A DNA stretch of 64,000 nt from Ignavibacteriales bacterium (GTDB taxonomy: Bacteria > Bacteroidota > Ignavibacteria > UBA10030). Below, piece by piece: positions 48,913-53,695 of the stretch. The position numbers were made by a program, and so were the translations under genes. Within the stretch, counting starts at the first letter, position 1. The number at the start of each line of letters is the position of its first letter. Location of the stretch: the NCBI GenBank assembly GCA_026390575.1, contig JAPLFR010000015.1, forward strand, positions 107,101 to 171,100. The letters are read 5' to 3'. Below the pieces are notes generated by a model that saw only the letters and a list, made by a program, of their open reading frames with translations, did no database searches and was not told the DNA's origin.

Positions 48913-49305
48913 ATGAAAAACCTATCTAAAATATTTAAGACACTTTCCGATGAATCTCGGTTGAGGATCTATTATCTCATTCTTGCATCGGATGAGTTGT
49001 GTGTATGTGATATTGAGAAAACTCTTCGTTTTTCTCAAACAAAGGTCTCCCGTCATCTTTCATATCTCCGCAAAGCAGGCCTCGTAAAGTACCGTAAGCA
49101 AGGACTTTGGATGCTCTATTCTATCGCGGAGTCTCAGAGTGCTGAACAACGACAATTATTACAGTCAATTGCTGCCGGACTGAAGGCGAATCCAGTGGCG
49201 CAACGCGACACTCAGCTCCTTGCCAAAAATATTCAGCGTGGATGCTGCACAACGTACTCCGTTCTTAAGCCTCATCTAATGCCTGCACTCGTAGGAGCTC
49301 AATAA
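48913..49305 (+). CDS. arsR: ArsR/SmtB-family metalloregulator (copy 3) with vicinal Cys near C-terminus (…RGCCTTYS…)
   Basis: LSDESRLRIYYLI…ELCVCDI…FSQTKVSRHL HTH. Confidence 0.8.
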   Translation: MKNLSKIFKTLSDESRLRIYYLILASDELCVCDIEKTLRFSQTKVSRHLSYLRKAGLVKYRKQGLWMLYSIAESQSAEQRQLLQSIAAGLKANPVAQRDTQLLAKNIQRGCCTTYSVLKPHLMPALVGAQ

Positions 49306-49306
49306 T

Positions 49307-49546
49307 ATGCCTCAATCATCTATTATGAATACACAAATTCGCGAATTGATTGCCATTGGGGCATCTATCGGGGGAAACTGTCTGCCATGCCTGCGCTATC
49401 ATTTTGCGGAAGCAATGAAGGCAGGCTGTAATATAGATGATGTTTCTGAAGCAATTGCGCTTTCTAAAAAGGTAAAAGAACGCCCTATTGCAGATATTTA
49501 TAAATTAGCAGACGAGCTTCTTCAGAGCGGACGAAAAGAACAGTAA
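49307..49546 (+). CDS. Carboxymuconolactone decarboxylase / AhpD-like family protein (short)
   Basis: 79 aa with …GASIGGNCLPCLRYH… (CxxC-x2-H motif of the CMD/AhpD fold). Confidence 0.65.
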   Translation: MPQSSIMNTQIRELIAIGASIGGNCLPCLRYHFAEAMKAGCNIDDVSEAIALSKKVKERPIADIYKLADELLQSGRKEQ

Positions 49547-49573
49547 TATCAACGATAATCAAAGAGGAATACC

Positions 49574-49801
49574 ATGCCAACATATGAATTTCATTGTAAA
49601 GAATGTGGGTACACATTTGAGTCTTTCTTGACAGTTGCGGATAAGGAACGAAAGGACCGCGAAGCTTCTATCACATGCGAAAAGTGTGGAAGCAGTAAGA
49701 TTGAACAGGTATTCGGTGGCTTTTCAATCCTCACTGGTTCTCAGGTGAATCAAAAGACCGGTGGTGGTTCAAGCTGCTGTAGTGGCGGGAATTGTTGCTG
49801 A
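49574..49801 (+). CDS. FmdB-family zinc-ribbon protein with Cys-rich tail (…GGGSSCCSGGNCC)
   Basis: MPTYEFHCKECGY…CEKCG zinc ribbon (two CxxC pairs). C-terminal Gly/Ser linker, then CC…CC. RBS AGAGGA. Confidence 0.7.
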   Translation: MPTYEFHCKECGYTFESFLTVADKERKDREASITCEKCGSSKIEQVFGGFSILTGSQVNQKTGGGSSCCSGGNCC

Positions 49802-49808
49802 GTGCGAA

Positions 49809-50926: not shown

Positions 50927-50961
50927 GAGTAGCTAATGTTTGATTATGAAAACAATATTAA

Positions 50962-51798
50962 ATGGAGAATCAACTGATGGTACGTTACTTGAATTCTAAA
51001 AACATTGGATCAATAATGATCGTCTTTGCCCTAGTCACCATTTTAATCTGTATGAGTGATTCTGCTAATTCACAAACGGCAAATCGTTCAAAAACTCAAA
51101 AGCAGACAATGGGGAAAAGTTCTTCTGCACCCGAATCAGCAAATAAGGCAATTGCACAGGCTCAGCAAAATGGCGATTACCTGTATATAATGTTTTATGA
51201 AAAGAAAGACGATTCTTACCAAGAAATGCGGAAGACCGTTCAGGCCTTCGTAAAAAAATCGGTCAAACCGATAAAGACTTATGAAGCCATGACAACTGAT
51301 AGCAAGGAATCGGATGTGATTCAAAAATATGGCATTAATCAAGCGCCACTTCCCATTCTCCTTGTATTCGCACCCAACGGTGCGATAACGGGCGGCTTCC
51401 CTCAAAAAGCCACGGAGAAACAGCTTACAGATTGTATGGTCCCAAATTTGATTATGAATATTTTAAAAACAGTTCAGTCAGGTAAAATCGCATTAATATT
51501 GCTTCAGAATAAGAATACAACGTTAAATACCGAAGTGGAAAATGTCGCTGTAGAATTCTCTAAAGATACACGTGTCGCTGGCTATGTGGATATCATTAAG
51601 CAGGATCCGAGTGAGGGTAATATAAAAGACTTTCTCACGCAGTGTAAAGTAGAGAACACATCAACAGAAGCCTCTACCGTTATGATTGTCCCGCCGAATA
51701 AAATTGGCGGTGTATTTAAGGGAAAAATAACCAAGGAAACTCTTATTGCTGGTTTAGCCTCGTGTTCCGGTGGTAGTTGCTGTGGTTCCAAGAAGTAG
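50962..51798 (+). CDS. Membrane-anchored protein with two tandem thioredoxin-like (non-CxxC) domains and tail …CSGGSCCGSKK
   Basis: N-terminal signal anchor (IGSIMIVFALVTILICMS). Internal duplication of about 90 aa (…YLYIMFYEKKDD…LPILLVFAPNGAITGGFP… / …IALILLQNKNT…TVMIVPPNKIGGVFKG…). C-terminal Cys tail. Confidence 0.6.
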   Translation: MENQLMVRYLNSKNIGSIMIVFALVTILICMSDSANSQTANRSKTQKQTMGKSSSAPESANKAIAQAQQNGDYLYIMFYEKKDDSYQEMRKTVQAFVKKSVKPIKTYEAMTTDSKESDVIQKYGINQAPLPILLVFAPNGAITGGFPQKATEKQLTDCMVPNLIMNILKTVQSGKIALILLQNKNTTLNTEVENVAVEFSKDTRVAGYVDIIKQDPSEGNIKDFLTQCKVENTSTEASTVMIVPPNKIGGVFKGKITKETLIAGLASCSGGSCCGSKK

Positions 51799-51810
51799 GA
51801 AGAGTAAAAA

Positions 51811-53028
51811 ATGAAAATAAGAAAATTAGTTTTTAAGGAAACATTTCAACGCGGAAACCAATTAGTAACCAGTTTAACTGCGATTACACTTGGCATTGCT
51901 GTTATTGTAGGCATCAAGAACATTAGCGTCTATTCAGAAAAAGCGGTATCGAGAGAATTGGATGCTCTGGGGGCTAATGTTCTCATCCTGCCTAAATCAG
52001 CGACGGTACAGGATTACTACAGTGCCGATTTTCAGGAAGAAGAAATTCCGGAAAGCTATGTGGACGTTTTAATCAATTCGGATATTCAAGGTCTTGATAA
52101 TCTCTCTCCTAAACTGAGCGTTCCGGTCGAAGTCAATGGACAGAAAACAGTCCTTACAGGAATTATGCCGAAAAATGAATTTAAGTCGAAGGCCACTTGG
52201 CAGGGAGCTTTGGGAGTTTTTTCCAGACCGGAAGGATGCGGAACCGTTCCAAATATCCCCGGCCTGACTGACTCTAAGAAAACTCAGGTGCGAAAACGTG
52301 TGATCGAAGATTTATCAGGGAATGCTGTTCTGGTAGGCTGCGATATTGCACAAAAGCTAAAACTGCAAGAAGGAGATTCCCTTCGCATATTAAAACAAAC
52401 ATTCTTTGTCAATGCAGTGCTGCCAGTAACCGGCACAGTGGATGACAACAGAATCTTTGCACATCTCCACACTGTTCAAAATCTGAATAACCGCAAGTCT
52501 GCTTTAAATGTCATTGAAATCGTAGGTTGCTGTTCTGAGATTTCCAAAGGACTTATTCAAAAACTGAACAAACTGTTGCCCGATGCCAAAGTTGTTACTA
52601 TTACGCAAATCGTAAGCACGCAAATCAATACCAATAATATGATGAATAATTTATCTCTTCTTTTGCTGATTATTATTGTCATCATTGGCGGTGCCACCAT
52701 CGCAAATTATATGTTTGCAAATGTGTATGAACGACGGCGCGAAATAGGCATTCTCATGGCTATGGGAGCAACGCCGGGTTGGATCGTCAAACTATTTTTA
52801 CTCAAATCCCTTCTCATAGGTCTTGCAGGCGGAATTATCGGATACATTGTGGGAACACTCATTGCAGTTGTCCTGGGGCCGAGGCTGGCGGATATTCCAG
52901 TGCTTCCTATACCAATGCTAGCCGTGTATGGGATCCTTGTTTCAATACTCGTTTCTCTCATCGCGAGTATTTTACCGATAATCAGGGCGACCAAAGTAGA
53001 TCCACATGTCATTATGCAAGAGGATTGA
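51811..53028 (+). CDS. ABC transporter permease, FtsX/MacB/DevC family, with vicinal Cys (VGCCSEI) in the periplasmic domain
   Basis: 405 aa. TM1, large periplasmic domain, C-terminal 3-TM FtsX domain. Paralog of 650-1867. Confidence 0.85.
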   Translation: MKIRKLVFKETFQRGNQLVTSLTAITLGIAVIVGIKNISVYSEKAVSRELDALGANVLILPKSATVQDYYSADFQEEEIPESYVDVLINSDIQGLDNLSPKLSVPVEVNGQKTVLTGIMPKNEFKSKATWQGALGVFSRPEGCGTVPNIPGLTDSKKTQVRKRVIEDLSGNAVLVGCDIAQKLKLQEGDSLRILKQTFFVNAVLPVTGTVDDNRIFAHLHTVQNLNNRKSALNVIEIVGCCSEISKGLIQKLNKLLPDAKVVTITQIVSTQINTNNMMNNLSLLLLIIIVIIGGATIANYMFANVYERRREIGILMAMGATPGWIVKLFLLKSLLIGLAGGIIGYIVGTLIAVVLGPRLADIPVLPIPMLAVYGILVSILVSLIASILPIIRATKVDPHVIMQED

Positions 53029-53032
53029 TTTC

Positions 53033-53695
53033 ATGATAAAAGTCGAAAATATCAATAAGGTTTTTACGGGCAGGCATACAAAGGTTCAAGCGCTGAAGAA
53101 TATCTCACTTGAAATTAAAGAAGGTGAATTCTTGAGCATTATCGGCCCAAGTGGTTCCGGAAAAAGCACACTGCTCCTCACGCTGGGAGGCATGAGTTCG
53201 CCAACGTCTGGAAAAGTATTCTGGAAGAACGATCCTATCTATGAGTGGAAGTTAAATAAACGAGCAGATTGGCGCGCACAAAACATTGGTTTTGTGTTTC
53301 AAACGTTTAATTTGCTGCCGTATTTGAATGTTTATGACAACGTTCAAATATCTTTGAGCTTGTCTGCTCCAAATGGCAGGAATGGAAAAGATATCCTAAG
53401 CATTTTGAATCGGATGGGTTTGTCGGAACGTCTCGAACATCTTCCAAGCGAATTGAGCGTGGGACAACAACAGCGCGTCGCTTTGGCAAGGGCGCTGGTA
53501 AAAAATCCGCATTTAATATTGGCGGATGAACCTACAGGTAATCTTGATCCAGGTACAGCTTCCGAAATAATAAATATTCTTAAAGAAGTGAATAAAAAAG
53601 GAAAGACCGTTGTCCTGGTTACACATGATCCAAACTTGGCAAACCTATCAGACCGGTCTGTCAAAATCGTTGATGGAGAGATACGCTCTGTTTAA
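53033..53695 (+). CDS. ABC transporter ATP-binding protein, MacB/LolD family
   Basis: Walker A GPSGSGKST, signature LSVGQQQRVALARAL, Walker [12 protein letters not shown]. Start taken at MIKVENI (ATG 53033), just after the permease stop. Confidence 0.85.
   Translation: MIKVENINKVFTGRHTKVQALKNISLEIKEGEFLSIIGPSGSGKSTLLLTLGGMSSPTSGKVFWKNDPIYEWKLNKRADWRAQNIGFVFQTFNLLPYLNVYDNVQISLSLSAPNGRNGKDILSILNRMGLSERLEHLPSELSVGQQQRVALARALVKNPHLILADEPTGNLDPGTASEIINILKEVNKKGKTVVLVTHDPNLANLSDRSVKIVDGEIRSV

Follow-up and report, generated by a model that had tools for sequence, protein, structure and literature searches.

We describe two cysteine-rich gene cassettes in the arsenic resistance (ars) island of an Ignavibacteriales metagenome-assembled genome (MAG), within a 64,000-nt stretch of DNA (contig JAPLFR010000015.1, positions 107,101 to 171,100; hereafter the window). 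The island is large, lies 3' of ftsA-ftsZ and contains a single tight run of plus-strand genes leading from arsR-3 (48913) to acr3 (57838), in which neighbours are -13 to +50 nt apart. Behind arsR-3 the run comprises module A (49307-50926), made up of an AhpD-like protein with a CxxC motif, a zinc ribbon of the FmdB family, an ArsD-like protein with one conserved thiol and two YlbF paralogues that end in CCG, and module B (50977-53695), made up of an exported tandem thioredoxin-fold (tandem-Trx) protein, an ATP-binding cassette (ABC) permease of type VII and its ATPase. The two modules are independent cassettes, both at home in ars operons, because one locus (L066) has A without B while another (L062) and most others have B without a complete A. 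For both, the sequences suggest a role in handling arsenic as thiolate complexes, which we put at about even chances.

The genes of the run are listed below; every gene named in the initial annotation of this uninterrupted same-strand run is indeed present. The probable true starts of the first YlbF gene, the tandem-Trx gene and the ABC ATPase gene are 50139, 50977 and 53033.

48913-49305, + strand: arsR-3, ArsR/SmtB repressor (HTH_5, 49.7 bits; NF033788, 90.2 bits)
49307-49546, + strand: module A, small AhpD/CMD-like protein with CLPC (CxxC) (PF02627, 38 bits)
49574-49801, + strand: module A, FmdB-family zinc ribbon with tail GGGSSCCSGGNCC (TIGR02605, 48.5 bits; Zn_ribbon_8, 43.5 bits)
49809-50111, + strand: module A, monothiol ArsD-like thioredoxin-fold protein with conserved Cys14 (hhalign to the ArsD profile)
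50139-50540, + strand: module A, YlbF/RicF-like protein 1, ending KPQRGCCG (PF06133, 63.4 bits)
50528-50926, + strand: module A, YlbF-like paralogue 2, ending APPSCCG (PF06133, 60.1 bits)
50977-51798, + strand: module B, exported tandem thioredoxin-fold protein with tail CSGGSCCGSKK (AlphaFold2 (AF2) model)
51811-53028, + strand: module B, type VII ABC permease (FtsX + MacB_PCD) with C143, C240 and C241 (Pfam, Foldseek)
53033-53695, + strand: module B, ABC ATPase resembling LolD, FtsE and the nucleotide-binding domain of MacB (PF00005, 121.8 bits)
53721-54062, + strand: arsR-4, with CSC in helix α3 and end QNCCK, heading arsD-arsA-arsC-acr3 (HTH_5/ArsR)
54087-57838, + strand: canonical arsD (MCCPSGLCG), arsA, arsC (low-molecular-weight protein tyrosine phosphatase type) and acr3 (Pfam annotation of the syntenic locus L064)

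Occurrence of the two modules in ars operons

Vicinal Cys pairs are concentrated in this part of the window: 5 of the 10 proteins encoded at 48.9-54.1 kb have CC within their last 14 residues, compared with one of the 66 in the rest, namely arsR-1 (Cys frequency in this count, 1.36%). Chance is excluded as the cause of this clustering, and the tails are kept in orthologues, which bears out the initial annotation as to their non-random nature. The five different folds to which it ascribes shared CC tails are not all independent convergences, Cys-rich tails being a family trait of YlbF proteins (RicF/RicA; PMC6751060) and of FmdB proteins.

Module B was surveyed in 140 loci from about ten named lineages. 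Sixty genome loci came from a scan seeded with the invariant APNGAITGG motif of the tandem-Trx protein and, to remove the seeding bias, 80 metagenome loci were kept from a search in which the permease was the only seed (433 relatives). The genome loci are mostly from Planctomycetota MAGs, the other taxa being Chlamydiota, Eisenbacteria, Armatimonadota, Sumerlaeota, Krumholzibacteriia, Desulfobacteraceae, Nitrospirales, Gammaproteobacteria and one Bacteroidetes MAG, and most show the order tandem-Trx (1-4 copies)-FtsX-ABC-ArsR beside acr3, arsC, arsM or arsD-arsA. Among the metagenome loci the tandem-Trx gene lies directly 5' of the permease in 63 of 65 and the ATPase gene directly 3' of it in 56 of 57, and ars genes are present in 46 of the 48 loci of at least 6 kb. 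Co-location with ArsR and arsenic resistance genes is therefore conserved across genomes, as is characteristic of an ars operon or ArsR regulon, and this near-obligate ars context across phyla, with an ArsR adjoining, argues for a functional link. The initial annotation had made its proposal depend on co-localisation with arsR or ars genes elsewhere; both the tails and the ars context recur, and this attempt at refutation failed. Periplasmic thioredoxin/CcdA genes co-occur in part of the module-B loci.

The two modules are readily found apart. One contig (L064) repeats the entire window arrangement, with the same order, the same tails and the same arsR-4. In L066, by contrast, arsR is followed by the CMD, FmdB, ArsD-like and two YlbF genes (the latter ending in RGCCG and QSCCG) and then directly by arsD-arsA-arsC-acr3, with neither module B nor arsR-4, whereas L062 consists of arsR, Trx, ArsP, tandem-Trx, FtsX, ABC, arsC and acr3 and has no module A. 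Most of the approximately 140 module-B loci lack a complete module A, and among the loci scanned none outside the window's own clade has one; module A is rare and moves as a unit. This separate occurrence rules out the single, obligate and integrated relay system originally proposed for the run, and with the modules independent of one another the envisaged fixed chain of cytoplasmic carriers, periplasmic acceptor and exporter is not required.

The module B proteins and the adjoining ArsR

The permease has a C-terminal FtsX domain with four transmembrane (TM) helices (PF02687, 69.7 bits; cut-off 25.5) and, between TM1 and TM2, a periplasmic domain (MacB_PCD, PF12704, 32 bits; cut-off 27). A Foldseek search with its AF2 model returned LolE/LolC, MacB and HrtB as top matches (E 1e-17 to 1e-12). 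With an FtsX domain, a large periplasmic domain and an ATPase encoded alongside, module B belongs to the type VII ABC transporters; its proteins score below every curated equivalog cut-off (for LolC/E, TIGR02212, the permease reaches 55.5 bits against a cut-off of 362.45). The permease family comprises at least 2576 clusters, and nearly all of the 120 listed have a length of 405 amino acids (aa), with generic names throughout. The ATPase resembles those of bacteriocin and darobactin exporters.

A CC dyad in the permease motif VGCCSEI had been singled out in the initial annotation. Not one of the permease sequences compared, 47 from genomes and 37 from databases, departs from C240 or C241 (100% invariance), at a median identity of 59% across the sampled taxa, so the dyad is real; it is also incomplete, as there is a third invariant Cys, C143 (98-100% conserved in the same two sets). 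All three are placed in the periplasmic domain by homology to MacB and LolCE. In the AF2 model C143 is on a low-confidence, presumably flexible loop, and C240/C241 are in the core, where a strand meets a helix.

The AF2 model of the 278-aa tandem-Trx protein (predicted local distance difference test score 84.6) shows an N-terminal TM/signal helix, a disordered linker, two thioredoxin folds and a disordered tail. Neither fold contains a CxxC, and this agrees with the initial description of two non-catalytic thioredoxin-like domains followed by the end CSGGSCCGSKK. The PDB structures closest to it are non-catalytic bb' domains, those of protein disulfide isomerase, Eps1p, ERp27 and calsequestrin, while no Pfam or NCBIfam family model matched. 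The protein has 28 close clusters in a collection of 5.8 billion proteins, with the invariant motif FAPNGAITGG. At least two Cys are present in the last 22 residues of 83 of the 98 complete homologues; usually there are three, spaced by four residues (C-x4-C-GPGG-C-GPKK), and a vicinal CC is found in 24 of the 98. The CC tail claimed for this protein thus holds up as a conserved Cys tail and not as a dyad, a three-Cys Gly/Pro tail being the rule. What is conserved is a set of three thiolates, which fits As(III), and not a CC dyad in the strict sense. A hydrophobic segment is present at the N-terminus of most homologues, and a lipobox in about a quarter; together with the homology of the permease to MacB and LolCE, this places the tail and the permease Cys on the same, outer side of the membrane.

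Some relatives depart from this pattern. Two tandem-Trx homologues (P0026 and P0027) have a C-terminal extension beyond the Cys-rich stretch that matches PF13884. Double-length relatives (575-603 aa) without a Cys tail are encoded in L023 (9563-11374) and L032 (4633-6360), and no FtsX or ABC gene was detected on the 12-kb contig of the latter. L029 has four tandem Trx-like paralogues (6163-9761) ahead of one permease; the last has the tail CGAGCSCHQ, which the L059 tail CGAGCACHH resembles. The CGP-CTERM sorting signal was considered for the CGP-rich tails and rejected, as no hydrophobic helix comes after the motif.

A site of three thiolates (S3) is the hallmark of As(III)/Sb(III) binding, as in R773 ArsR, AfArsR, ArsD and ArsA. 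The ArsR subfamily adjoining module B has an invariant C30 (helix α3) and an invariant C112 (near the C-terminus), and every variant offers three thiolates: CVC plus C in L064 and L066, C plus CC in Planctomycetota, and CVC plus CC in the window, where arsR-3 has ELCVCD (C30, C32) and, in the C-terminal region, RGCC (C111, C112). The sequences therefore point to an As(III)-type cysteine site in the adjacent ArsR. The CC that the initial annotation had seen in arsR-3 is present, 18 residues from the end and not as a tail. Two other regulators of the island, arsR-1 (41076-41447, 5' of arsM) and arsR-4 (53721-54062), have CxC in helix α3 and a terminal NCC or NCCK. In Shewanella ArsR, the site selective for methylarsenite consists of a vicinal CC alone.

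MacB-type (type VII) ABC transporters pick up their substrates in the periplasm or the outer leaflet and not in the cytoplasm, and use ATP to move periplasmic domains. For this reason a relay from cytoplasm to periplasm through the permease, as first envisaged, is unlikely. No MacA/HlyD/TolC-like partner, nor any other partner family, recurs among the clustered unassigned open reading frames (ORFs) within 6 kb of the permease in the 140 loci. Module B shares with MacB, LolCDE, FtsEX and HrtBA the FtsX 4-TM domain, a Porter/Sabre-like periplasmic domain and a separate ATPase, and with FtsEX-EnvC and LolCDE-lipoprotein a dedicated exported partner protein. It differs from them in its invariant periplasmic Cys triad, its ars-operon setting and a partner made of tandem thioredoxin folds and a Cys3 tail; and, unlike MacAB-TolC and LolCDE, it has no MacA/TolC or LolA-like partner nearby.

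The module A proteins

The small CMD-domain protein passes PF02627 at 38 bits against a cut-off of 23 and weakly matches the GSU3128 (seleno)protein family and an ArsM-AhpD fusion family. Its homologues recur in ars loci (5 genome and 10 metagenome loci), and some are CC-tailed (KACCS, SSCCS, VRCC, KCCG). The FmdB protein scores well above the TIGR02605 cut-off (48.5 against 31.3 bits), with the N-terminal pairs CKEC...CEKC visible, and carries two CC pairs in a tail that is kept in L064 and in L066, where it reads GGGSGCCGGGDCC. Cys-tailed FmdB-like genes are also found in three other ars loci (L078, L136, L139), the tails of FmdB-like ribbons in ars loci elsewhere including GGCCGDEADCCG and GGCGSKPVAGCCG; Cys-rich tails are a trait of the FmdB family. 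Ars loci elsewhere also encode a protein ending in SCCS that is IscA/HesB-like as judged by eye; in L072 (817-1107) it lies near module B, as in two other loci, has 96 aa and contains GGGCCG as well as the end SSSCCS.

The ArsD-like protein has no Pfam or NCBIfam match, BLASTP gave no alignment between it and the window ArsD, and a PDB sequence search returned noise. Its profile (37 members) nevertheless aligns over the full length with the ArsD profile (hhalign 94.7%, E 6e-8), and this comparison of profiles supports a remote homology to ArsD. The family has 71 representative clusters; C14, W20, P68, G80 and K82 are nearly or fully invariant, and 9 of the 37 members match DUF1462. Its one conserved Cys aligns with ArsD Cys18, and the Cys12-Cys13-Cys18 site of ArsD is absent. 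The name ArsD-like in the initial annotation was thus apt as to profile, but the protein has a single Cys in place of the triad.

Both YlbF paralogues pass Com_YlbF (PF06133) at 63.4 and 60.1 bits against 23.9. The first has 10 close clusters, all 10 ending in KPQRGCC and 9 of them in CCG. The second shares 27% identity with it, the tails align, and its own tail is kept in L064, L065 and L066; a YlbF-like gene of this second type stands alone in L103. The pair recalls the RicA/RicF/RicT system, with two YlbF-family paralogues, disordered C-terminal tails and cooperating Cys (PMC6751060), and differs from it in ending in vicinal CCG and in its ars-operon setting in Ignavibacteriales; no RicT-like gene is among the named genes of the run. 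Another YlbF-like family with a C-terminal CC is halo-CC-star HcsL (NF041416), whose profile spans both window paralogues end to end, but their scores of 69.7 and 48.2 fall short of its cut-off of 140 and the family is haloarchaeal by name. We found no published description of the HcsL family.

In the ArsD-ArsA hand-off and the S3 sites of ArsR, the ligands of As(III)/Sb(III) are flexible Cys triads or vicinal pairs, and thiol exchange moves the metalloid on. The two modules have the same operons and regulators as these proteins, and module A contains the probable remote ArsD homologue. They are unlike ArsD-ArsA in that this homologue has one Cys and the other carriers are of unrelated folds, and in that module B is on the periplasmic side, with a type VII ABC transporter in place of ArsA-ArsB/Acr3.

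Candidate roles and neighbouring genes

From the gene linkage, the Cys conservation, the folds, the topology by homology and the three-thiolate sites in the adjacent ArsR, we infer a ligand, a direction of transfer and a physiological purpose. The cassettes would be accessory modules of a composite ars island, inserted with an ArsR repressor on one side and arsR4-arsD-arsA-arsC-acr3 on the other. Module B would be an ArsR-linked type VII ABC mechanotransmission system working outside the cytoplasm: As(III), or a methylated or thiolated arsenical, would be caught as a thiolate complex on the tri-Cys tail of the tandem-Trx protein, handed to C143 and C240-C241 of a permease dimer (on the flexible loop and the periplasmic core) and then released or expelled as ATP drives the movement of the periplasmic domains. 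Its purpose may be to shield periplasmic dithiols, with the co-encoded CcdA/thioredoxin pair supplying reductant to the periplasm and so keeping the thiols reduced. Module A would be a cytoplasmic thiol set that binds or buffers the metalloid and feeds ArsD/ArsA-Acr3. Its YlbF pair might form a RicA/RicF-like heteromer, with a third ligand coming from the monothiol ArsD-like protein or from FmdB, and its AhpD-like CxxC protein could act as reductant. There is a precedent for cooperating tails in RicAFT, where C-terminal Cys from both YlbF paralogues, together with a third protein, ligate one centre (PMC6751060).

Several points weigh against an arsenic role. Every locus comes from MAGs or metagenomes, and no cultured host was found. 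Module A was seen in three distinct genomes only, and tblastn of the permease against 72,556 plasmids gave no matches. A type VII ABC transporter usually needs an outlet or partner and none recurs here, which leaves expulsion without an obvious destination. The three permease Cys could form structural disulfides. In the only case studied, YlbF tails bind an iron-sulfur (Fe-S) cluster (PMC6751060). Finally, Hg is possibly the ligand, hgcAB being adjacent in 9 of the 140 loci.

The last point deserves attention, as the mercury methylation pair hgcAB lies in the same ars island, 4 kb 5' of the run, and passes both equivalog cut-offs (hgcA, NF040863, 415.5 bits against 275; hgcB, NF040864, 106.5 bits against 99). 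The pair is immediately beside module B in 6 of the 60 genome and 3 of the 80 metagenome loci (L001/2, L005, L013, L017, L030, L045, L088/89 and L091). The modules might accordingly handle mercury instead of arsenic, the CC tails taking Hg(II) or methylmercury (MeHg) as do the C-terminal CC of MerA and the CC of HgcB, and module B ridding the envelope of Hg-methylating cells of Hg(II)/MeHg. Among Hg(II) ligands the vicinal CC is a classic, as discussed by Haft and Gwadz, and the vicinal Cys on flexible ends in MerA, MerP/MerT and HgcB acquire a soft metal and hand it on in a comparable manner; no mer genes are among the named window ORFs, and the window HgcB has no terminal CC. However, the 9 of 140 loci with hgcAB compare with 46 of 48 longer metagenome loci with ars genes, and the adjacency may be indirect, since hgcAB is already known to associate with ars genes (PMC7438021; bioRxiv 10.1101/2022.10.17.512643). 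The conserved sites present three thiolates, not two, and the regulators are of the ArsR and not the MerR type; we consider a mercury role unlikely. For module A, the precedent of RicAFT raises another alternative, a RicAF-like redox or Fe-S sensing complex acting as a regulator or RNA-processing adaptor and not as a metalloid carrier, with the tails of the two YlbF paralogues, perhaps joined by the FmdB ribbon, ligating the cluster. Both paralogues are genuine Com_YlbF proteins, with two Cys apiece they would supply four ligands, and cluster 2 of B. subtilis RicAFT is ligated by RicF C134/C146, RicA C141 and RicT C167 (PMC6751060). Yet RicAF alone held no cluster (PMC6751060), no RicT/PSP1 gene was found at the locus, the vicinal CCG ending is unlike the spaced Cys of RicF, and module A is fixed inside ars operons, directly 5' of arsD-arsA in L066. 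A sensing complex of this kind seems improbable to us.

Module B could also be an envelope system outside metalloid chemistry, for instance a Lol-like extractor or regulator of its own lipoprotein, with Cys that form structural disulfides, and merely travel with ars islands. LolE/LolC as top structural matches, the lipobox in about a quarter of the tandem-Trx homologues and the action of FtsEX-type systems on periplasmic partner proteins would all agree with this. It is made quite unlikely by the ars context (46 of 48 loci, across phyla) with an ArsR adjoining the module, by the nature of the tails, which are disordered Gly/Pro/Cys stretches outside the folded domain, and by the LolCE equivalog score of 55.5 against 362. 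That the Cys/Gly-rich tails are precursor-like peptides to be modified or exported, with the ABC transporter as exporter or immunity pump, is suggested by a weak match of the FmdB protein to the Cys-rich peptide family TIGR04165 (E 0.037) and by the likeness of the ATPase to bacteriocin/darobactin exporter ATPases. We give this very little credence: no radical SAM, YcaO or LanM modification enzymes were found in the run, the tails are borne by folded proteins of five families, and in most loci module B occurs without the FmdB/YlbF set.

The initial annotation held that no such system had been described. We found no description in the literature of module A, or of a tandem-Trx/FtsX/ABC unit in ars operons, but the idea itself has precedents in the SAO system and in halo-CC-star HcsL, neither of them homologous to module B or ars-linked. 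In SAO, unrelated proteins of one anaerobe locus share CC/CU motifs, among them a CC-COOH lipoprotein with a signal peptide, a thioredoxin-like protein and an ABC transporter, and the system has been read as one for heavy-metal trafficking, with a conceptual link to HgcAB (Haft and Gwadz, bioRxiv 10.1101/2022.07.06.499078). The likeness lies in several unrelated Cys-motif proteins in one locus, thioredoxin-like and ABC proteins included; SAO differs in its MetI-type importer, in proteins that are often selenoproteins and in having no link to ars. No Sao families were among the NCBIfam matches of the window proteins scanned.

Ars operons that contain module B are present on hundreds of contigs of uncultured anaerobes, among them Planctomycetota, Omnitrophota, Desulfobacterota and Ignavibacteriales, and the module is nameless although arsenic resistance is among the best-mapped bacterial stress systems. 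We suggest, with low confidence, that it might represent a metalloid/metal detoxification machine of a class not recognised before, in which a type VII ABC mechanotransmission system would for the first time serve a soft metal(loid) alone, with a Cys triad in the permease and periplasmic Cys3-tailed Trx-fold shuttles; in hgcAB anaerobes it could be an exit route for methylmercury or methylarsenite from the envelope. If arsenic is indeed handled outside the cytoplasm, arsenic defence would gain an ATP-driven extracytoplasmic layer, and MacB-type transporters a new substrate class. Standing repeatedly beside hgcAB, module B is also a testable candidate for the poorly understood Hg/MeHg traffic in methylating bacteria, and its invariant Cys are clean mutagenesis targets.

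Upstream of the run the island begins with arsR-1, arsM, a nitroreductase-like gene and arsC, followed by hgcA and hgcB; then come arsR-2, an ArsP permease with small thioredoxins, a periplasmic thioredoxin and CcdA. The coordinates of the neighbours that bear on the discussion are as follows.

43713-45183, + strand: hgcA and hgcB (NF040863, NF040864)
47259-48419, + strand: periplasmic thioredoxin and CcdA/DsbD_TM (Pfam annotations of the syntenic loci L001 and L064)

The window HgcA has a Cys-rich N-terminus (MGCSDQKCGCG), and the window HgcB ends in PTCGGPDEVSCN (...SCN), without the C-terminal CC that is nearly universal according to the literature. In L088 and L089 the order arsR-hgcA-hgcB-CMD-arsC-acr3-tandem-Trx-FtsX-ABC forms an apparent ars operon, with a slightly different order in L091, and the CMD proteins of all three end in CCS. 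A scan of the region for sigma-70 promoters and terminators did not rise above the shuffled expectation, the sigma-70 model being uninformative for this lineage. Two near-identical GC-rich hairpins, at 40195-40210 (CTCCGGGAGGCCGGAG) and 41031-41046 (CTCCGGGAGACCGGAG), each followed by a T-rich run, flank a minus-strand gene between ftsZ and arsR-1. Between CcdA and arsR-3 (48438-48695) there is an 85-aa protein with an N-terminal CC (MSKSCCIKP...) and no family match; it is kept in L064 (MAKSCCGKP...), and an F420_oxidored-like gene takes its place in L001. Beyond the run, a 524-aa protein (62339-63913) with many CxxCH motifs is a multihaem cytochrome c, which bears on the suggested need to shield periplasmic dithiols from arsenite.

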